Positions 31,002 through 63,620 of a stretch of 64,000 bases of DNA are shown here, one piece after another. Within the stretch, counting starts at the first letter, position 1; each line of letters begins with the position of its first letter. Location of the stretch: assembly GCA_037379345.1 (NCBI GenBank), contig CM074511.1, positions 12,524,001-12,588,000 on the forward strand, read 5' to 3'. Position numbers and translations under genes: made by a program. This DNA comes from Perna viridis (Eukaryota). The notes beneath the pieces were generated by a model that was given only the letters and a program-made list of their open reading frames with translations, was not told the origin of the DNA and made no database searches.

Positions 31002-33639
31002 TTCTGGTTTTAAACATGGTATGATTTGGCCAGTGCTATCAGCATAGTTTAACCCAAATAATTTTCAGATGCCATAAGGAGCTGCCTCTGCCTTACAAAA
31101 ATGAATGTCCTTGTGCGATTATCATGTGACCTATATGCAAATCTAAACATATACTGCACCAATTTTGAGAAAACCAAACTGAGAAAGCGTATTCACTCAA
31201 AGTAAACCATTTCTTTTCATTTATAAAAAGTAGGTTTGTCAAAAAGCTGTATAAATCTGTGTCTACAATAATACCTCTAATGAATGACACATGTAATCAC
31301 TGACAAGAGCTCTATAATTGGTTCCTAGTTAAAGTACACAGAAACTGCTAACTGATATATTGTTGAAATTGACATTTTTCTTAAGAGACTAAATGGGCAA
31401 ACATAAGTGAAAAAAAAAAGAAACAGTAATTGAAGAAAGTCAACAACAGGCTGACTGAAAAGAACCAGAAAAGTCTTAACAAGCTATTCATATCAGACAT
31501 TCTGTATGAATTAACACATTTCTTAAGAACTTGACATACTTTAAATACATGACTGGAATAGGTGATATAGAATACTTTGTGAAAGGTTTAGGGTCATAAT
31601 TTCTGCTTCAAGACTTGAAATAGTGAAATATGAAGGTCACAAAACTTTTCTAAAGAGTAATATTCAATTTTAAAAGTTAAATAGAATCATTGGTAAATTT
31701 TTATCAGTCACTAGTCATTGTGATCTTATCAATAAGTATGCATGAAATGGAAAAGGAGCACTTGGATATGAGCAAAATGGTTCTGCAATTTTTACAACCT
31801 CCCCATGCTAAATGAAAATCAAACCCTGAAGTGTAAACAGACAGACAGATACATTTAAATGACAAAAAACTTTGTTAGCTTGGCATTAGTAAGCAACTAA
31901 AACACTTATATCTTCCAGACCTAAGTTAACTCATGGACATCATTTGAAAAAGGTAAATCAAGACGTATAGAGAGAATATTGTGTCTCAAATATGAATCAG
32001 CTGAATGCATTGTTTCTATAAGACACATAGTCAGAGTTGACAGTTTTCTCTGAGGACAGTAAGAAAATTGTAGTAATAAGTAAATTAGACTTAATTCACA
32101 TTAATTCACAATGGTAGTGACATATCAAAGTGGTCCAAAGTCAAAAGAAACACATGAAGATTTCAATTTACATCATTTAGTGGTCTGGTAATAATTATAT
32201 TTACGAGGAGTCAGATTGGAGAGATCTAATTCCCGTCCCTACCAGATGAATAGTTTCTCTGCACAAATACAATAGAAAGTTATCTTGTGAGTGTTTGGAG
32301 TGGTTGTGTCTAGAATTATTCAGAAGTTTATCACAGATACACCATTACAGTGAGAATTTTTGTAATTTAATTCAAGTCAAAATGGATAACACATTTTCTA
32401 GGATGAATTTCCCACACAATAAAGATTAAAAAAAACAAGTTTAAACCAGAACATTTCTTTACCAGTAATTTGATGTTTTCAAATTTATTTACATGTAAGT
32501 TTTAACCAATGTAAAGTTCAGAATGCCACTTAGCTGAATATTTAACTAGCAATTATCAACATGAAATTGAGTGATTGAAAACAACAAACCGCCAATGAAA
32601 ATTGTTTGCTGCATAAAAAATTGGCAGTGATTTTTACGTGTTCCTGTAATCAATGTCCGTCACTGTAACGCTTCTGATTTCCCCAAGGAAACATGGTGGC
32701 GCTGATGTAATTGATTCAGTTTAGAAGATTGTTGAAGTGAAAAGTCACAATGAAAGAGCTTTTAATGTCAGTACAGGAATTTTTACATCATTGTAAGATT
32801 GTAATAAAAAACATTTTGTCAGCATCAGCCAAATCCATAAATAGATATAGATGTACCCATTATGGTAGAAATAATCACTTTTGTTTCACTATCAGATCTC
32901 AGAGGAATCACTGGCCACTGTAATCAAATCTTTTTCCATTAAATACTGATAAAGCAATTCATATATACAGAAGAATCCGAAACCTTCTTTCTTTGCCAGT
33001 CTCCAAGGGACTTCCAAAAGGTACACATAATTATCATTCTTGTTTTAAATAAAAAAATCATTCATTTCTGGATGGGTGAAAGCCCCTACAATTGGCCAAA
33101 ATTTTAATGAATACAGCAAACTTTTTAATGTCAAGACCAAAGTGACAATGCTCAACTCTATCTTTTATTGTTGAAAGTTTTTTTTCTGAATTTTAACATG
33201 TTTTCACTTGCTCAAACACTTTCCAATCAGAAAAATAAAAAGGCAAGCATTTATAAACATTCATATGTCAAGATAATCACATGACCAAATAATATAATAG
33301 TGTATCAGACAGACAGAAAGACATACATATAGACAAAAGCTTTATTGAAGGGGAATAAGTGTAATTTTAACAATATCAGTAACACCAATAGTCTGTAATA
33401 TAAAGCCAACAGACCTAACCCAAGCACAGCTTAAAAAAATAATTGTCATCATCACTTTAATACAGCATACCAATGTTATTTTCTTAATCTAGAGAATATT
33501 GTTCTTCGTAGCTTCAATGTTTCTTCTCTTACCATTTAATTGTTTATTGAATGAGGATTACAAGCCTTATATCATAGTATAAGGAATCAGAAATATTTGA
33601 TGGGTTGTTCATCTCAGAACATAGAAATAACAATAACAG

Positions 33640-35667
33640 TAAGGTCTCTTGGAATTTCCATTGGATATTGTATGTAAACTTAAGGCTTCTTGGAATTTAC
33701 AGTGGATATCATATGTATACCTTAATGCCTCTTGAAATTTCCATTGGATATTGTGTGTATACCTTAAGGCCTCTTGGAATTTCCATTGGATATTGTATGT
33801 ATACCTTTGGCCTCTTGGAATTACCTGAGGATATTGTATGTATACTTTAAGGCCCCTTGGAATTTCCATTGGATATTGTATGTATACCTTAAGGCCTCTT
33901 GGAATTTCCATTGGATATTGTATGTATACCTTAAGGCCTATTGGAATTTCCATTGGATATTGCATGTATACCTTAAGGCCTCTTGGAATTTCCATTAGTT
34001 GTATGTATACCTTGAGGCCTTTTGGAATTTCCATTGGATATTGTATGTATACCTTAAGCATCTTGAAATTTCCATTGGATATTGTATGTATACCTCAAGG
34101 CCTCTTGGAATTTCCATTGGATATTGTATGTATACCTTAAGGCCTCTTGAAATTTCCATTAGTTTTATGTATACCTTAAGGCCTTTTGGAATTTCCATTG
34201 GATATTGTATGTATGTTAGGCCTCTTGGAATTTCCAGTGGATATCAAATGTATACCTTAAGGCCTCTTGGAATTTCCATTGGATATTGTATGTATACCTT
34301 AAGGCCTCTTGGAATTTCCATTACTTGTACGTATACCTTAAGGCCTCTTGGAATTTCCATTGGATATTGTATGTATACCTTAAGGCCTCTTGGAATTTCC
34401 ATTACTTGTATGTATACCTTGAGGCCTTTTGGAATTTCTATTGGATATTGTATCTATACCTTAAGGCCTCTTGGAATTTCCTGAGGATATGGTATGTATA
34501 CTTTAAGGCTTCTTGGAATTTCCAGTGTATATCATATGTACACCTTAAGGCCTCCTGGAATTTCCATTGGATATTGTGTGTATACCGTAAGGTCACTTGG
34601 AATTTCCATTGGATATTGTAAGTATACCTTAAGGCCTCTTGGAATTTCCACTGGATATTGAATGTATACCTAAATGCCTCCTGGAATTTCCATTGGATAT
34701 TGTATGAATACCTTAAGGCCTCTTGGAATTTCCATTAGTTGTATGTATACCTTTAGGCCTCTTGGAATTACCATTGGATATTGAATGTATACCTAAATGC
34801 CTCCTGGAATTTCCATTGGATATTGTATGTATACCTTAAGGCCTCTTGGAATTTCAATTGGATATTGTATGTATACCTTAAGGCCTCTTGGAATTTCTAG
34901 TGTATATCATATGTATACCTAAAGCCTCTTGAAAGTTCAATAGGATATTGTATGTATACATTAATGCTTCCTGGAATTTCCATTGGATATTGTATGTATA
35001 CCTTAAAATCTCTTGGAATTTCCATTGGATATGGTATGTATACCTTAATGCCTCCTGGAATTTCCATTGAATATTGTATGTATACCTTAAGGTCTCTTGG
35101 AATTTCAATTGGATATGGTATGTATACCTTAAGGTCTCTTGGAATTTCCATTGGATATTGTATGTATACCTTAAGGCTTCTTGGAATTTCCATTGGATAT
35201 GGTTTGTATACCTTAAGGTTTCTTGGAATTTCCATTGGATATTGTGTGTATACCTTGTGGCCTTTTGGAATTTCCTTTGGATATTGTATGTATACCTTTA
35301 GGCCTCTTGGAATTTCCATTGGATATTGTATGTATACCTTTAAGCCTCTTGGAATTTCCAGTGGATATCACATGTATACCTTAAGGCCTCTTGGAATTTT
35401 CATTAGATGTATGTATACCTTGAGGCCTTTTAGAATTTCCATTGGATATTGTATGTATACCTTTAGGCCTCTTGGAATTTCCAGTGGATATCACATGTAT
35501 ACCTTAAGGCCTCTTGGAAGTTCCATTAGATGTATGTATACCTTGATGAGGCCTTTTAGAATTTCCATTGGATATTGTATGTATACCTTTGGCCTCTTGG
35601 AATTTCCTGTGGATATTGTATGTATACCTTTGGCCTCTTGGAATTTCCTGAGGATATTGTATGTATA
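33640..35667. repeat. 42-bp minisatellite, ~48 copies (2 kb), with 39-bp variants
   Basis: Unit ccttaaggcctcttggaatttccattggatattgtatgtata. It explains all LRPLGISIGYCMYT-type ORFs. Confidence 0.98.
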
Positions 35668-36665
35668 GCAAACTGTAAGAGGATTACACAAGATAAAAAT
35701 GAAAATAACAGAACCAAGACATTTTTATGTCTTATTACATATCCATTTATTCCTGGTGCATCTATCCCAGATTCATTTAATTCATCTTTACATTCCATGT
35801 AATCCATGAATTCAAGTCAAAGCAAGAAATCAAGTCTATAAATCAACTGGGTCACAGTTACACCAAGCTCAAGTTTGAATGATAACACATTTTATTGACA
35901 CAATGAAAGGACATATAAGGTTTGAGGCAATGTACTCTCTACTAACAAGCAATTTTAAGATGAAGAGCAAATGAGGCTTTCATTCTCCTTCATCAGAGTA
36001 CAAAAGCATGAAATTTCTGTGTATCAGACTTCAGTAGGAAGAAGAAAAGAAACCCCAAGAACTGGACCAATTAATCTATTTTTATGGGAAACCATCTCAT
36101 TTACTATTATCATTTCTGAATGGCATTTCACCAAGAAAACAGCTTCATAGTATAATACCAAATTTGACTTATAATTTACGGCACATTTCAATATTCCCTT
36201 ATTAGTTAATTATTCGTATAAAAGACATAATCCAGAAACCATAATTGTAGTTTTCACATGTTGAGTTAGAACTGGGCAAATTGACACTGTTATACAAACC
36301 ACTGAGAACTAATTGACTATTCTACAACTCCCTTGTCAGTAGTGCACTATGTCAAAATTAGCACTTACTACAGGCAACTATTGTCTTCTATGGCATACTG
36401 CAATATATTGTATGGAATGGTTTCAAGGATTGGTATACTAGATGATTCAGTATAAAGCATAGCATAAGGCTTTTCATACAACATAATAATCCTACCATCC
36501 ACCATACAATAATTGACAATTTGCTTGTATTTCAAAAGGACTCATATCACCAAAATGTATTTGTAAAATATAGTAGAAATGAGACTAGTTTGTTGCAGTA
36601 AATGTAATATATTGTTAATGAGGTTTTGCAGATTGAGCTAAATTGATGATTTTATTCTATTTCAG

Positions 36666-40237: not shown

Positions 40238-40540
40238 AAAGTAATCAAGAGAACCAAGATTCTAGCAGAAATCAAAAGAATGTAATCCAGGGACAAAGAC
40301 CAGACATGGAAAACAGACATGCACAACAAAGAACATAAAGTAACTAAATAAAATCATACATACAAAGTAACAAAAGTAAATGAGCAACTCAGACTCCACT
40401 AAAAACTGGGAGCATGGACCAGGTGCACCGGTAGAGTAAGTGTCCTCTGCTTTTCTAGAAACACCGGCTGAATTGCTCATAAAAAGTCAAGTCCGGGGTA
40501 GACGAAAGAGGAAAAGAAAACTATGACATGTTGAACAAAT
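40238..40540 (-). mobile_element. Second, shorter copy of the Penelope-like element 3' end
   Basis: The reverse complement aligns to ~54512-54812, from the last RT codons (ttcaac.tgtcatag) through the whole 3' region. It gives the same spurious ORF MSNSAGVSRKAED. Confidence 0.9.
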
Positions 40541-42897: not shown

Positions 42898-43343
42898 ATA
42901 CTGGCTTCAATGAGTAAATATCCCATGGTGTCACAGTATACTGGCTTCACTGTGTAAATATCCAATGGTGTCACAGTATGGACAACCAATGGAGCAACTG
43001 TCTTAACTTCTAATGGAGTCACTGTCTGGACTTCCAATAAAACCCCTATCTGGGTTTCCAATGGACCCACTATCTGGCCTCCCAATGAAGCCATTATCTG
43101 GGTTTCCAATGGAGCCACTGTCTGAAATTCAAATGGAACCACAGTCTGGACTTCAAATGGTGTCAGTGTCGGAACTTCTAATGAAGCCACTCTATGGACA
43201 TTCAATGGAGTCACTATCTGGGTTTCCAAAGAAGCCACAGTCTGGACTTCCAATGGAGCCACTGTCTGGACTCACAATGGAGCCACTGTCTGGACATCTG
43301 ATTGAGCCACTGTCTGGACTTCTAATGGTGCTACTGTCTGGAC
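42898..43343. repeat. 24-bp minisatellite (~15 copies) preceded by a related 40-bp duplication
   Basis: Unit caatggagccactgtctggacttc. The 40-mer atactggcttcaMtgWgtaaatatccMatggtgtcacagt occurs twice at 42898-42977. Confidence 0.9.
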
Positions 43344-43877: not shown

Positions 43878-44820
43878 AGGGACCAATATTTCTAGCCATA
43901 TTCTACAGTAGGAAGCAGGGTCTAATATTTCTTACCATGGGGACCTATACTTCTTGCTATAATCTCTAACAGGAATTGGGAACAAATATTTCTCATTACA
44001 TTCTCTAGTAGGAAATGGTGACCAATATTTCTTGAAATATTCTCTCACAGAAATCAGGGACCTATATTTCTTGCCATATTCTCCAACAAGAATTGGGGAC
44101 CAACTTTTCTTGTATTATACTTTCACATGAGGTATGGATTGGTATTTCTTGCTATATACTCCAACAGGAATTGGGAACCAACATTTCTTGCCATATTCTC
44201 TAACAGAATATTGGAACTGATATTACTTGCCATATTCTCCAACAGGAATTGGGGACCAACATTTCTTGCCAGATTCTTTCTTGCCGTATTCTCTAACAGG
44301 CATTGGGGACCACCAACAGTTCTTGCCATATTCTCTAACAGGCATTGGGAACCAACATTTCTTGCATTATTCTCCAACAGGATTTTGGGACTGATATTAC
44401 TTGCTATATTCTCTAACAGGAATTGGGACCAACATTTCTTGCCATATTCTCTAAAAGGCATTGGGGACTTATATTACTTGCCATATTCTGTGACAGGAAT
44501 TGGGGACCAACATTTCATGCTATATACTCCAACAGGCATTGGGAACCAACATTTCTTGCTATATTCTCTAACAGGACTTTGGGGCTGATATTATTTGCCA
44601 TATTCTCTAACATGAATTGGGGACCAACATTTCTTGCCATATTCTCTAACAGGAATTGGGGACCAACATTTCTTGCCATATTCTCTAACAGGCATTGGGG
44701 ACCACCAACAGTTCTTGCCATATTCTCTAACAGGCATTGGGAACCAACATTTCTTGCCATATTCTCTAACAGGATTTTACCTGTGATATCCTCGAACAGG
44801 CATTGGGGACCAATATTTCA
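43878..44820. repeat. 39-bp minisatellite, ~24 copies
   Basis: Unit ccaacatttcttgccatattctctaacaggaattgggga, more diverged at the left end. Confidence 0.95.
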
Positions 44821-45737
44821 GCATAACTACACTAATACAAATGACATGTAATCGTGTAAACTATTTTTTACAATTCATTATTTATACTAATGCATAAGAC
44901 TTAACTTGATACACATGTCATTTTACCAGTGTAATTATTATCCCATTAAACATTGTACAAGAAGCAATAAACCTTGAATTTCTATGTTGACAGGAGTTAT
45001 TCTCAATCATTATTCATTCATACAACCTTCTTTGCTGAAATGCATTGAATTATGGTTGCAAAGAATAGGGGTTAATGCCCCAAAATTTAAATTTGCTGAA
45101 CCTAGGAAATTGGAATTCATACAGAAAAAGGCAATTTTGTTTTCTTAATGAAGCCCTATTTATTTGGTGTGCAATATTCACCAGTCCTAGTAGTATGGTA
45201 AAGCAGAATTGATGTAATTGAATATGACATCTTGGTGTGAAGAAAATCGGGAAGATAAGTTCCATCAATAGTTCTTCATTACCAAAAGAAGAAGATTTTT
45301 TATTCTCTGACAAATTACATAATAATGGTGAGAAGTAATGGCCGTTATAAATTACACCTTAGTTACAGACTAGAGAGATTCTATCTTTTATTCTTGATAG
45401 TCATACCAATCTCAAGGGAATCTGACCTTTATTCTCATAGTGGACACATATGGTCCTTCATTTCTCTCTATTTATTGTCTAAAGTCTGTCTCTACTAATA
45501 TGGAAACTTGTTGTCTTCAAGTGTAAATAATCAGAAATCTAATAAAATCTTTGACTTCCGCCAACTTAACACTCTTCAAACCATGGAAATAGATGACCAT
45601 AGATTTCCTGTACTAACCCTTGTTTACACAATTTTGCAATTTAATCAGGACAATAATATAGATCTTTCAACTTGTTACACTACTTCCTGAACAAACAAGT
45701 AGTCTAGTTCTGTTGATACTCTACAATTTAATTAATT

Positions 45738-51727: not shown

Positions 51728-52645
51728 GTTTTGATATAGACATGATTCCAGTTTATCCTGGGCTTTATTTAGGTTTGGTATAGACATGATTTCAGCTTAT
51801 CTTAGGCTTTATTTAGGTTTGATATAGACATGATTCAAGCTTACCCTAGGCTTAATTTAGGTTTGGTATAGACAGGATTCCAGCTTATCAAAGCCTTTAT
51901 TTAGGTGAGATATAGACATGATTCCAGCTTATCTTAGGCTTTATTTAGGTTTGGTATAGATATGATTCCAGCTTACCCTAGGTTTTATTTAGGTTTGGTA
52001 TAGACATGATTCCAGCTTATCCTAGGTTTTATTTAGGTTTGGTACCGACATGATTCCAGCTTATCCTAGGCTTTATTTAGGTTTGGTATAGATATGATTC
52101 CAGCTTACCCTAGGTTTTATTTAGGTTTGGTATAGACATGATTCCAGCTTATCCTAGCCTTTATTTAGGTTTGGTATAGACATCATTCAAGCTTACCCTA
52201 GGTTTTATTTAGGGTTGGTATAGACAGGATTCCAGCTTATCTAAGCCTTTATTTAGGTGAGATATAGACATGATTCCAGCTTATCTTAGGCTTTATTTAT
52301 GTTCGGTATAGACATGATTCCAGCTTATCCTAGGCTTTATTTAGGTTTGGTATAGATATGATTCCAGCTTACCCTAGGTTTTATTTAGGTTTGGTATGGA
52401 CATGATTCCAGCTTATCCTAGCCTTTATCTAGGTTTGATATAGACATGATTCCAGCTTATCCTAGCCTTTATCTAGGTTTGATATAGACATGATTCCAGC
52501 TTATCCTAGCCTTTATCTAGGTTTGATATAGACATGATTCCAGCTTATCCAAGACTTTTAGGTTTGGTATAGACATGATTCTAGCTTATCCAAGACTTTT
52601 AGGTTTGGTGTAGACATGATTCTAGCTTATCCTAAGCTTTATTTA
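51728..52645. repeat. 44-bp minisatellite, ~21 copies, with a 352-bp higher-order period
   Basis: Unit atgattccagcttatcctaggctttatttaggtttggtatagac. Confidence 0.97.
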
Positions 52646-54137
52646 TATAGCATTCCTGTTTAGTTTTGTTTTCATAGGTTTTGAATTCAATCCAAGTTAG
52701 CTGTACTGTAAATCTTTTAGATTTATAAAAATTGTTTAGACAGCCATGTATCCATGTAACTTTTTGTATGCAGTCATGGACAGTAACAGATACCTATCCA
52801 AATTTTAAAATGCTTCAAATATATTGATATTTCTTGATCACTAGTCATAAAATCTACATTAAGTGGCATTCAAACATGGTATTGATTTGCATTTGTTATG
52901 GTCAGTTAACTAGACTGGCATCAATTAATCCTATAAAGGGGCGGGTATTAATATCAGAACAAATTATAATTATTACTGAACATTATGTCAATAGAACCTT
53001 CTGGTCAATTGTAAAGTTCGTACTTTTATACTGATGTTCCATGCAACGTAGGTCATCTGTCTTATTTTACGATCTACTTCATTATGTCGTATTGACACCA
53101 TGCCATGCACTAGTGGATAAAACCTTATAAAACATCATATCAGTATTTTTGCTTGTTAATTCCAGTATGGAATATATATATATTAGGAGAGCTATGTAAG
53201 AATTGGAGAATAGGAAATAAATAATTAATATTGATTTCTCTATAGGGGTAAGTAGTGTAATTAAACATTTAAGAGAATGGATGGATTTGACACAAAACAA
53301 GTTTTTTTTCAAGTATTACACTAATTTAACAAGTGGAAAATATTTCTTTTCCAGTTAATCAAAATTTAATTTTCTTAAAGTACAGCTACTTAGCTCATGG
53401 GTTCTTTGGTACTGCTATCATTTTTAAAGTTAAATATTTTGCAGGATTGAAATGGTGTTTACTAAAGAATTTATGCATTTATATATCTACTGATTGATTT
53501 TTGTAAGAATTATTGTATAATTAATGTTAAACTAAGTTTTCTATACATTCGCAGTGATTTTGATAAAGACTTAAGGAACAGACCATATTTAATGGTTATC
53601 AGAACTTCTTTTAAGTAGATATTTAATATTTCCTACATGGGACATGTTTAGTTTGAATGAGATAAATGGTCCCATCTTATCCCAAACACTACATTCAGGA
53701 ATTTATTTTTTTTTTATCACTTTACTTTCTCAGGCAAAAATAAAACCTTTCATAAATATGAATTATTTTGGACTCCATAAGTTTAACTAAAAAGCAGAGT
53801 ATGTAAAAGAGTACGCCATGATATATTACAAAAGCATCAAATGCCAATAAAAATCTTTGGTTGATAAAATATGTAGATTTTACCATTATTGACCACATAT
53901 AGCCTGGTACATGTACTACATCCAAGCTTCAACAAGAGTTCATCAGATGGGTTGGCAGAAAAAGTACTAATTATATATAAAAAAAAAAATCAAAGAAAAA
54001 AAACCACTTAAATTCATTTCACCAGTTAGTATTGTTTAACTTTCAATTCGATCTTTGAAATTAATAATAGTATTGTTCTATGTAGGGAAATTTTATCAGA
54101 AACCCATTCTTATAATTAATTTATGTCACTGGTGAGA

Positions 54138-54924
54138 ATAGACCCTTTTGTGGTAAGTTAGTGAGCATGCTCAATATACACTTCTGTAAAAAATCGATGG
54201 TAAAGGAAAACTATTGACCAAACTTTACGACAAACGTGATGACTTTTCATTCAGAATTGTCAACTTTCCTTTCATCTGTGGCAACATCCCTTCAGCTCCT
54301 GCGTATGGAGTGTTCATATAACAACTCATACGTTATGCCAGAGCTTGCCGAAACTACGCAGACTTTTTGTATCGCGCTAGAACTCTAACATATAGGCTTC
54401 TGGAACAGAGTTATGTTGCTACAAGATTGAAGTCATCACTACAGAAGTTTTATGGCCGTTATCATGAACTTGTGGATCGTTATGGTGTATCCATCAGCAC
54501 CATGAAAACTGATTTATTCAACGGGTCATAGTTTTCCTTTCCTCGTTTGTCTACCCCGGACTTGACTTTTTATGAGCAACTCAGCGGGTGTTTCTAGAAA
54601 AGCAGAGGACACTTACCCTACCGGTGCACCTGGTCCATGCTCCCAGTTTTTAGTGGAGTCCAAGTTGCTCATTTACTTTTGTTACTTTGTATGTATGATT
54701 TTAGTTACTTTATGTTCTTTGTTGTGTATGTCTGTTTTCCATGTCTGGTCTTTGTCCCTGGATTACATTCTTTTGATTACCGCTGTAACCTTGGTTCCTT
54801 TGATTTTTTCTTTCTGCAAGGTAGGGCTTGGGTAGAACAAAATAATTTTCCTCGCAGAAACGTATATTGAGCAAGCTCTACGCATGCTCATCGACTACCC
54901 CAACATTAGCACAAAAGGGTCTAT
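54138..54924. mobile_element. Non-autonomous TIR element interrupted by the Penelope-like insertion
   Basis: Left end atagacccttttgtggtaagtt matches right end aacattagcacaaaagggtctat in inverted orientation. A second inverted pair is gagcatgctcaatatacacttctg / cagaaacgtatattgagcaagctc. Confidence 0.75.
54193..54815 (+). mobile_element. 5'-truncated Penelope-like retroelement (probably Naiad/Chlamys-type): RT C-terminus plus 3' non-coding region
   Basis: Frame 54193-54531 reads IDGKGKLLTKLYDKRDDFSFRIVNFPFICGNIPSAPAYGVFI*QLIRYARAC...KFYGRYHELVDRY...GS*. This resembles a PLE RT thumb region, with one premature TAA at 54319-54321. The ORF ends with no C-terminal GIY-YIG domain. Confidence 0.85.
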
Positions 54925-54980
54925 AGCCATACTCAAAGTTCACTGACCACTACTAAAGTTGACAAACTTATGATATAACA

Positions 54981-55049
54981 AGACATGTAATGACCTACTT
55001 GGCTGAAGTCTCCAGACATGTAATGACCTACTTGGCTGAAGTCTCCAGA
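54981..55049. repeat. 33-bp perfect tandem duplication
   Basis: agacatgtaatgacctacttggctgaagtctcc twice. Confidence 0.9.
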
Positions 55050-62139: not shown

Positions 62140-62528
62140 AAACTTTCTTTTTATTCATTTCAGATTACAAGCACCAAGGAGACTAAGTGAAAGCAACCAC
62201 AATTGTGAAAATTGACTTGTCATTCAGCATACGATAGTCCAATCGGATGTCTCATACTTATAACTGTATTCTGAGAGTTATGGCAAGAATGAATGGATTC
62301 CATTCTAAGCAAGAAATTTTCCCTGACCATTTGTTTTTATCTCTTTGTTGTTGTTGACTGTACATTAATCATAAACTGTTGACAGAAATTAATTTATTTT
62401 TTTATATGTCGCATTTGTAATCATCATAACTGTGATTTAGCAAGTGACAACCTGACTATTTCTCTTATTGACAATCAAAAATCATTTAAATTTGTTTATC
62501 TTATGTGCAAAACTTTGTATAGCACAAA
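62140..62528 (+). other. Splice acceptor (cag ending 62163) and ~365-nt 5' UTR part of the GPCR coding exon
   Basis: Polypyrimidine tract aactttctttttattcatttcag lies 365 nt before the ATG. Confidence 0.65.
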
Positions 62529-63620
62529 ATGGAGAGTTTGAATAGTTCTGGAAATAACTTAAGCCAACAAAACCCAATGAACCACAATGAATTTACAATA
62601 TTCAGTGAGCAGTATTCCAAGTATCATGGGTACATCTGCAGCTCCATCTGCATCTTTGGACTGGTGGCAAACATTTTGAATATAATCGTTTTGACAAGGA
62701 AACACATGATCACGCCTACAAATCTGATTTTGACAGCGTTGGCATTAGCGGATGTTATGACAATGTCTGTGTACCTGGTGTATGCCCTGTATTTATATGT
62801 GTTTACAATACCCATTGATACATATGGACATTCTAAAGGATGGATGTATTTTGTAGTTGTAAATAATCATGTGGTTATTACTTGCCATAACATGGCAATG
62901 TGGCTGACAGTCTCATTGGCAGTTTTCCGGTACATATTTGTTTGCCACCATGTAGTGGCAAGTCACCTATGCAGTTTAGAAAGAGCAAAATTGACCATTT
63001 TAATTGTAGTAGGAGCAACTATCTTATTGTGTATACCCAATTATTTCATGTACAAAGTAACGGAAATACAAAGCAATACATCCTTCTACTGGATAGATTT
63101 TAGTGATTTTGCCAAAAAACATGAACTCTATAAATCCATTACGTTCTGGATATATGGAGTCATTATTAAAATAGCTCCATGTGTTTTACTGACAATTCTG
63201 AGTGGATGTTTAATTATGACAATGCATGAAGCCAGTAAGAGGCGACAGAGATTGTTGCAACATGCAGGAAGACACAACGAAGAAACATCTGCTGAGCACA
63301 ACAGGACGACGATGATGCTTGTCACTGTAGTTCTTTTCTTCGTCATCACTGAATTCCCTCAAGGGATTTTAGCAGGAATAAGTGGCTTGAATCCAAACTT
63401 CTTTGTAACTGTATATTCTAAATTAGGGGATATTATGGATCTTTTAGTTCTCCTTAACAGTGCAATTAATTTTATTCTTTACTGTATAATGAGTCAACAG
63501 TTCCGTGATACATTTACCAATCTTTTTGTTTGTAATTTCGTATCGATACGGAATCAACATTCTGCCAAACAAAATGGGATGGCCTATAGCACAGTTAAGA
63601 CTGAAGTAACTCAAGTCTAA
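62529..63620 (+). CDS. Class A neuropeptide GPCR, myosuppressin receptor/DMSR-1-like (lophotrochozoan myomodulin-receptor-like), single coding exon, 363 aa
   Basis: Seven hydrophobic segments. Family motifs: YHGY..ICIFGLVANILNIIVLTR, TN.ILTALA.AD, WLTVSLAVFRY (DRY position), W.YGVIIKIAPC, RTT.MLV.VV.FFVITEFPQGIL, NSAINFILYCIMSQQFR. N-terminal N-glycosylation sequons NSS and NLS. Good start context (aaaATGG). Confidence 0.95.
   Translation: MESLNSSGNNLSQQNPMNHNEFTIFSEQYSKYHGYICSSICIFGLVANILNIIVLTRKHMITPTNLILTALALADVMTMSVYLVYALYLYVFTIPIDTYGHSKGWMYFVVVNNHVVITCHNMAMWLTVSLAVFRYIFVCHHVVASHLCSLERAKLTILIVVGATILLCIPNYFMYKVTEIQSNTSFYWIDFSDFAKKHELYKSITFWIYGVIIKIAPCVLLTILSGCLIMTMHEASKRRQRLLQHAGRHNEETSAEHNRTTMMLVTVVLFFVITEFPQGILAGISGLNPNFFVTVYSKLGDIMDLLVLLNSAINFILYCIMSQQFRDTFTNLFVCNFVSIRNQHSAKQNGMAYSTVKTEVTQV

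Follow-up and report, generated by a model that had tools for sequence, protein, structure and literature searches.

The stretch of DNA analyzed here, called the window, comprises 64,000 nucleotides of the Perna viridis genome and carries a 5′-truncated copy of a Naiad, a type of Penelope-like element (PLE). The 3′ untranslated region (UTR) of this copy holds an RNA module that also occurs on the opposite strand.

54192 to 54810, forward strand: Naiad copy, 5′-truncated; the C-terminus of the reverse transcriptase (RT), identified by translation and with one in-frame stop, followed by the 3′ UTR
54529 to 54531, forward strand: RT stop codon (TAG)
54572 to 54672, forward strand: the module
40380 to 40480, reverse strand: second, more decayed copy of the module, inside a short element copy at about 40238-40540

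The original prediction had described a GC-rich block just after the RT stop with a second copy on the minus strand, and this description holds: the module starts 40 nt past the TAG codon and contains 50% GC as compared with 31% across the window. As far as window position 54805, the Naiad copy shares about 97% identity with 39 other copies. The copies scored, which were the best 40 of 6504 candidates from the DNA search, were likewise about 97% identical, indicating a young and very abundant family. A 26-nt stretch of the module has 10,389 exact occurrences in the 723-Mb genome. The assignment to Naiads is supported by near-full-length relatives, which have an endonuclease-like N-terminal GIY-YIG region and the motifs CxC, GPKY and DKA; such an endonuclease region and the CxC, GxKY and DKA motifs are diagnostic Naiad features (PMC8557442). 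Endonuclease-like frames upstream of the RT were recognized by eye in two loci (L284, L287), and DCSC, GPKY and PADKA motifs were found in longer relatives. The element 3′ end is located about 130-145 nt beyond the module, and 108 of 161 pieces in 1 Mb of sampled genome ended 230-249 nt from the module start.

Homologues were collected from metagenome contigs using a pattern in which CGGGTG, CAR, YGCTYACYC and CACCYG were fixed and all else was free, including the pseudoknot positions described below. At least 123 stretches were found. A Naiad RT C-terminus was present just upstream in 38 of the 123 listed stretches, many of which had short flanks. Clustering of 122 listed stretches together with 44 copies from the own genome gave 32 clusters, 26 in AT-rich DNA and six in GC-rich DNA; the latter look like chance bacterial matches. 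The module was also present in at least 12 of the 54 Naiad consensus sequences in the available supplement of PMC8557442, ranging from cnidarians to fish (Chem-1, Chem-2, CGi, Sglo, Olur, Tgra, Pmar, Skow-1, Skow-2, Pfla-1, Pfla-2 and Cmel, with Sglo and Cmel named from file order alone). This count is a lower bound as line breaks in the supplement may mask more cases. The 12 consensus sequences were compared by eye and had been retrieved via terms from stem P1 of the module or by plain reading, without use of the core. Viral contigs gave no matches by pattern or by protein. A protein scan of bacterial genome contigs gave four loci, none with the module; two of these are cut off by the edge of the contig, directly or within 200 nt, one continues into host DNA and the last carries a hammerhead-type core. 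The own genome contains a second, older family (L071-L100) whose copies of the module differ in the sequences of the pseudoknot, palindromes and stems; the DNA immediately upstream of the 30 loci retrieved gave no RT match.

Comparison of these sequences led to the following secondary structure elements, all on the forward strand.

54572 to 54584, forward strand: 5′ strand of the closing stem P0, 13 bp in the family majority
54585 to 54590, forward strand: strand b (CGGGUG), pairing with 54627-54632 (P1) or alternatively with 54614-54618
54591 to 54600, forward strand: palindrome A, 10 nt, predicted to form a helix with a second copy
54606 to 54610, forward strand: pseudoknot 5′ strand, in which 5/5 pairs change on both sides
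54620 to 54625, forward strand: palindrome B, 6 nt, predicted to form a helix with a second copy
54627 to 54632, forward strand: P1 3′ strand (CACCYG)
54633 to 54637, forward strand: 3′ strand of the pseudoknot, located at the P1/P4 junction
54639 to 54659, forward strand: hairpin P4, variable in length and sequence between families
54660 to 54672, forward strand: P0 3′ strand

Evidence for this structure comes from the pseudoknot, in which the five bases preceding G-C-U pair with the five bases following CACCYG. In a set of 17 strand types, drawn from the 26 AT-rich cluster representatives and four hand-added members among the matches listed, 81 of 85 pairs were formed, compared with 51.4 ± 3.5 in a permuted null that reached at most 66 in 100,000 permutations. 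The AT-rich representatives formed 118 of 130 pairs and the six GC-rich ones 11 of 30. Pairing was specific for the register, with 138/150 pairs in the true register and 41-82/150 when the strands were slid. In an alignment of 19 hand-picked, mostly intact representatives, uncorrected for the kinship of its rows, all five pairs varied on both strands. The long closing stem anticipated from the window sequence corresponds to P0, a perfect 13-bp helix in the family majority, and the anticipated ctcc/ggag hairpin is P4. Both stems vary freely in sequence and length yet are formed in most families; the own partner of P0 ranked first in 14 of 23 representatives. Stem P1 of the module is invariant except for one G-U/G-C exchange, and its strand b positions are identical in the 12 published families. 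Since P1 was fixed in the search pattern, covariation gives no test of this stem.

Other parts of the original prediction had to be revised. The proposed inner hairpin cag..cact[..]ggtg..ctg did not covary: it was 79.7% paired as compared with 80.2% after shuffling, and its inner helix was 68% paired. Both this hairpin and the alternative gggtgtttct/agaggacactt fold rely on A54611, a position occupied by G in 69 of 78 sampled copies. A54611 is a CpG-decayed base and the hairpin that rests on it is not supported. The proposed pairing of a UACCC loop with GGGUG was partly right. The complementarity exists in 19/19 rows, but the covarying pseudoknot is the one between 54606-54610 and 54633-54637, which had been missed along with stem P1 and the two palindromes. 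Covariation across divergent families nevertheless sustains the central proposal of a conserved, pseudoknotted, non-hammerhead RNA in the position that a hammerhead occupies in other PLEs.

Folding of single copies was less informative. The window copy folded no better than its shuffles (z = −1.09) and the second copy gave z = −2.54. The beyond-chance evidence is the comparison of families, and we consider the structure real and strongly supported. Cofolding calculations that disregard pseudoknots mostly gave swapping of P0 strands and were set aside as evidence. The reverse strand folded about as well as the forward strand, and palindromes and stems are present on both strands, as would be expected if the structure acts in single-stranded cDNA or in the antisense strand during integration rather than in the sense RNA. 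We regard such a role as very improbable, since P1, the pseudoknot and the alternative helix contain wobble pairs that are G-U on the sense strand but would be A-C oppositions on the other.

The two palindromes suggest that the module operates as a pair. Palindrome A (8-10 nt, following CGGGUG) reached at least 8 nt in 20 of the 27 distinct sequences, against a mean of 0.9 after shuffling, and palindrome B (4-8 nt, preceding CACCYG) reached at least 6 nt in 11 of 22, against a mean of 1.4; these counts are for distinct sequences of the cluster set, among the matches listed. In the 19-row alignment all five pairs of palindrome A, including the central pair, changed on both sides, and the same was found for 3/3 pairs of palindrome B. 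The palindrome sequences are entirely different between families, with self-complementarity retained through their centers. The central tetramer of palindrome A was self-complementary in 17 of 18 hand-picked representatives, which contained eight different tetramers. A tetraloop would need no self-complementary center, so palindrome A points to pairing of two copies, and palindrome B is too short for a fold-back hairpin, which also suggests pairing between two like strands. Pairing of two copies via the palindromes is thus a strong inference from the sequence comparison.

The genomic arrangement of the element would allow such pairing. Copies are 5′-truncated, and partial tandems form pseudo-LTRs. 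In 28 of 30 copies with an intact 5′ end, fetched from the 40 scored, the sequence immediately upstream was the 3′ end of the element itself, and the upstream repeat included a whole module in 19 of the 28; some of these copies are duplicates of one insertion. The partial-tandem layout brings two modules into one read-through unit, so that two-copy pairing is possible. The hammerhead ribozymes of PLEs are described as acting as dimers through palindromic stems (PMC4209133).

The module was compared with known RNA classes. A search of Rfam, proposed earlier as a check for an already characterized motif, gave no relevant family for window 54000-55000 (E up to 10) or for ten homologous loci (E up to 1). 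A hammerhead was rejected, because the CUGANGA and GAAA core, already reported to be missing, is absent from the 3′ UTR of the family copy L006. A SECIS element was dismissed since Rfam gave no SECIS match at E up to 10 and the relatives have stop-free reading frames of 505-729 codons, hence without an in-frame UGA. In HDV-like ribozymes, helix P2 pairs the strand that precedes P3 with the 3′ end that follows the catalytic C; in the module the 3′ strand pairs with P0 instead, and there was no Rfam match. A telomerase-like template was discarded because the likeness of CUUACCCUA is confined to one family. Exonuclease-resistant RNAs bear a resemblance to the module and were rejected because the copies have no sharp 5′ boundary.

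Closer parallels exist among PLE and Naiad RNAs. Like the dimeric minimal hammerheads of canonical PLEs, the module occupies the same pseudo-LTR position and would have its palindromic stems completed by a second copy, whereas it has no CUGANGA/GAAA core, has two palindromes instead of one and contains a pseudoknot (PMC4209133). A different motif was noticed by eye in the 3′ UTR of other Naiads, at L014:1000-1130 (+) and L057:2070-2170 (+) and in the published Naiad_Scon and Naiad_Mmer sequences (available supplement of PMC8557442). It shares with the module the location in a Naiad 3′ UTR, a closing stem, and a 10-nt and a shorter palindrome that stand where the first helix would be, but its core sequence and fold are unrelated. 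In a bacterial assembly, a Naiad-like RT that is likely a host contamination (L298) was followed by CUGAUGA ... GAAA at about 470-570 nt after the RT match.

The unpaired bases that flank the pseudoknot 5′ strand are invariant, with C-A-G before and G-C-U-Y-A-C after it. They form two short strands that resemble the catalytic loop of the twister-sister ribozyme.

54602 to 54605, forward strand: (G)-C-A-G, predicted to be the short strand of a catalytic loop and corresponding to G5 C6 A8 G9 of twister-sister
54611 to 54616, forward strand: G-C-U-Y-A-C, predicted to be the long strand of the same loop, with the predicted cut at 54614/54615

In the twister-sister loop, G5 C6 A7 A8 G9 are opposite to G59 C60 U61 C62/A63 U64, with contacts A8-U61 and G9-C60, a G59 triple and C6·A63; the bases C6, A8, G9, G59, C60 and U61 are termed highly conserved (PMC5660989). 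For these six bases and A63, the module has invariant equivalents that follow one another as in twister-sister in 19/19 rows, where they were fixed by the search pattern and where the window row lacks the G, and in 12/12 of the published families. The C-A-G preceding the pseudoknot strand was likewise found in 19/19 rows and 12/12 published families. This seven-base match is post hoc because several ribozyme classes were compared, pistol first. The pyrimidine at the predicted cut site, equivalent to position 62, is C or U, and in twister-sister C62U and A7U are tolerated while A63U abolishes cleavage (PMC5660989). The pyrimidine-A cut step, predicted for the module, and the C..A-G and G-C-U-Y/A strands with the same possible A-U and G-C pairs are shared with twister-sister and with the human twister-sister-like 'lantern' ribozymes (PMC5660989, PMC11620745).

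The match has several gaps. The equivalent of base 7, the extruded base, is missing, as the C directly adjoins A-G in all rows. The G5 position is occupied by G in 16 of 19 representatives and by A or C in Naiad_Tgra and Naiad-2_Chem, whereas G5A, G5C and G5U mutations nearly abolish twister-sister cleavage (PMC5660989). In twister-sister, G5 lies at the scissile phosphate and is paired with U64. In a two-copy fold, a G of GGGUG might take the role of G5. Position 64 is always C, and the A12C mutation, which is like this change, nearly kills the LINE-1 ribozyme (PMC11620745). No twister-sister P1 forms within one module copy; its place would be taken by the two palindromes, and that of twister-sister P2 by the pseudoknot, with the loop set on the P0/P1/P4 junction. 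The 19-row alignment has no conserved loop corresponding to the SL4 docking loop or a three- or four-way junction; human twister-sister-like ribozymes similarly cleave without a docking loop, by the loop alone (PMC11620745). With a loop base, the docking loop and the lower stem absent, the module does not belong to the twister-sister class. Defining features of twister-sister, pistol, hammerhead, HDV-like and SECIS RNAs are missing in each case, and the module is filed in none of these classes. It most plausibly works like twister-sister.

At window position 54611 the conserved G is replaced by A, from which it follows that the window copy is likely dead. The second copy also has a G>A change at the conserved G, and both window copies are decayed and likely inactive.

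The invariant bases next to the pseudoknot can also be aligned with those of pistol. In that case A-G, the pseudoknot strand and G-C would act as A32 G33..G40 C41, the substrate would be GGGUG with palindrome A of the partner copy, and the cut would be near 54590/54591. The pistol pattern A32 G33, strand, G40 C41 is present as A-G-N5-G-C. The pseudoknot strand of pistol is 6 nt long, against 5 nt in the module. In pistol, the single pair G33-C41 closes the pseudoknot strand and G40, just before the C, forms a triple, a layout that is the same in the module (PMC4604425, PMC6154101, PMC6795133), and YACYC, complementary to GGGUG, could form P3. We nevertheless consider self-cleavage through another core, be it pistol-like or with a chemistry of its own, an unlikely explanation. 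The place of G42, which matters in pistol, is taken by U in 19/19 rows (PMC6154101, PMC6795133); the strict two-base cleavage junction, GU in pistol against 0-1 base in the module, cannot be drawn without opening a covarying pair (PMC4604425), and the strand order is permuted. Furthermore, the invariant C and U are left unexplained, and the Rfam pistol model gave no matches in the own genome, where its control matched nowhere either.

The best reading of the module, to which we assign a probability of about 0.5, is that of a dimer-dependent, twister-sister-like self-cleaving ribozyme; self-cleavage of any kind is probable. The pseudoknotted RNA in the Naiad 3′ UTR would fold with a second copy through both palindromes, and the folded pair would cut itself at Y/A, window position 54614/54615, by means of the twister-sister-like loop. 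As in twister-sister L1, the loop would contain A-U and G-C pairs, a G triple and a C·A pair, with the pseudoknot standing in for twister-sister P2 and the two helices between copies for P1. The complementarity of YACYC to GGGUG would compete with P1 of the module and cover the predicted cut site. This pairing may be an off switch that holds the RNA in an inactive state, or it may account for some of the Y-A conservation without catalysis. The distance of about 130-145 nt from the module to the element 3′ end fits better with a self-cleaving ribozyme than with a template-defining element, the two functions that had been envisaged for the block.

A footprint of cleavage was not found in the DNA or RNA that was inspected. 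The predicted site had 60 copy 5′ ends, fewer than either of two control sites (74 and 84), and of 30 copies inspected that begin at the predicted cut, nine proved to be internal deletions. None of the 28 pseudo-LTRs started at the predicted cut. No pile-up of read ends was present among 22,772 RNA reads from one run, in which both strands were represented, a weak test given the fragmented library and the read-through of copies. A functional PLE hammerhead likewise left no cut-end reads, and the substrate used in vitro was mainly uncut RNA (PMC11167929), which makes these negatives weak but real. A PLE hammerhead also depended on its protein in that work (PMC11167929).

The missing footprint is what would be expected if the module is a non-catalytic scaffold for dimerization and protein binding. 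Naiad RNAs, or the modules of a tandem, would pair via the palindromes, and the invariant bases would be read by the RT/EN protein for template selection or template jumps. Such a role requires nothing beyond the demonstrated pseudoknot and palindromes. One PLE protein is predicted to be dimeric with uncut RNA as its main in vitro substrate (PMC11167929), and the somewhat higher density of copy 5′ ends inside the module is expected from RT stalling at a stable fold. However, a scaffold leaves the in-order match of the invariant bases to a catalytic loop unexplained, the 3′ end of the copies is set about 130-145 nt downstream instead of by the module, and other Naiads hold ribozyme-type motifs in the same slot, such as the hammerhead core of L298. 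We judge this alternative rather unlikely.

If the module is a twister-sister-like ribozyme, cuts at both modules of a tandem transcript might release unit-length RNA that circularizes, and copying of the circle beyond one full turn might produce pseudo-LTRs while leaving no cut footprint in the DNA. This route to the pseudo-LTRs of PLEs is a speculative proposal that we hold to be rather unlikely.

No title or beginning of an abstract describing the motif was found among the open-access papers and preprint main texts searched. The Naiad paper reports searches for hammerhead and SECIS motifs only, describes Naiads as being without canonical hammerheads and still calls the role of PLE ribozymes unclear (PMC8557442). 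The motif can be tested precisely and at low cost, given a predicted cut site and mutations that are predicted to abolish activity. Cleavage would reveal a new wiring of a twister-sister-type active site, across two RNA copies, in animal transposons. It would also suggest that Naiads exchange hammerhead and twister-sister-like cores but keep the two-copy switch, which bears on the formation of tandem repeats by the telomerase-related PLEs. Even without cutting, the module is an RNA structure with strong covariation and no earlier description, carried by a repeat that is among the most abundant in marine invertebrates.

Some other features of the element and the window were observed. The 3′ ends of L005 and L026 and read joints showed that some copies finish with the terminal 27-38 nt of the element repeated in tandem. 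A tandem array at L356-L359 (G000:C6:47134008-47152579) contains four near-identical Naiad 5′ ends about 5.1 kb apart. A conserved stem with CUGCUGGUGGA and CCCCGAGG is formed by the first 60 nt of the element (L284:2764-2830 and the beginning of several Naiad consensus sequences from the literature); it is common to molluscs and hemichordates and is a candidate RT start signal. The window further contains minisatellite arrays with units of about 30-45 nt at 51740-52640, 33600-35670, 42900-43330 and 44020-44850, and at 62523-63620 on the forward strand a single-exon frame of 365 codons that, by eye, resembles a rhodopsin-type peptide GPCR.
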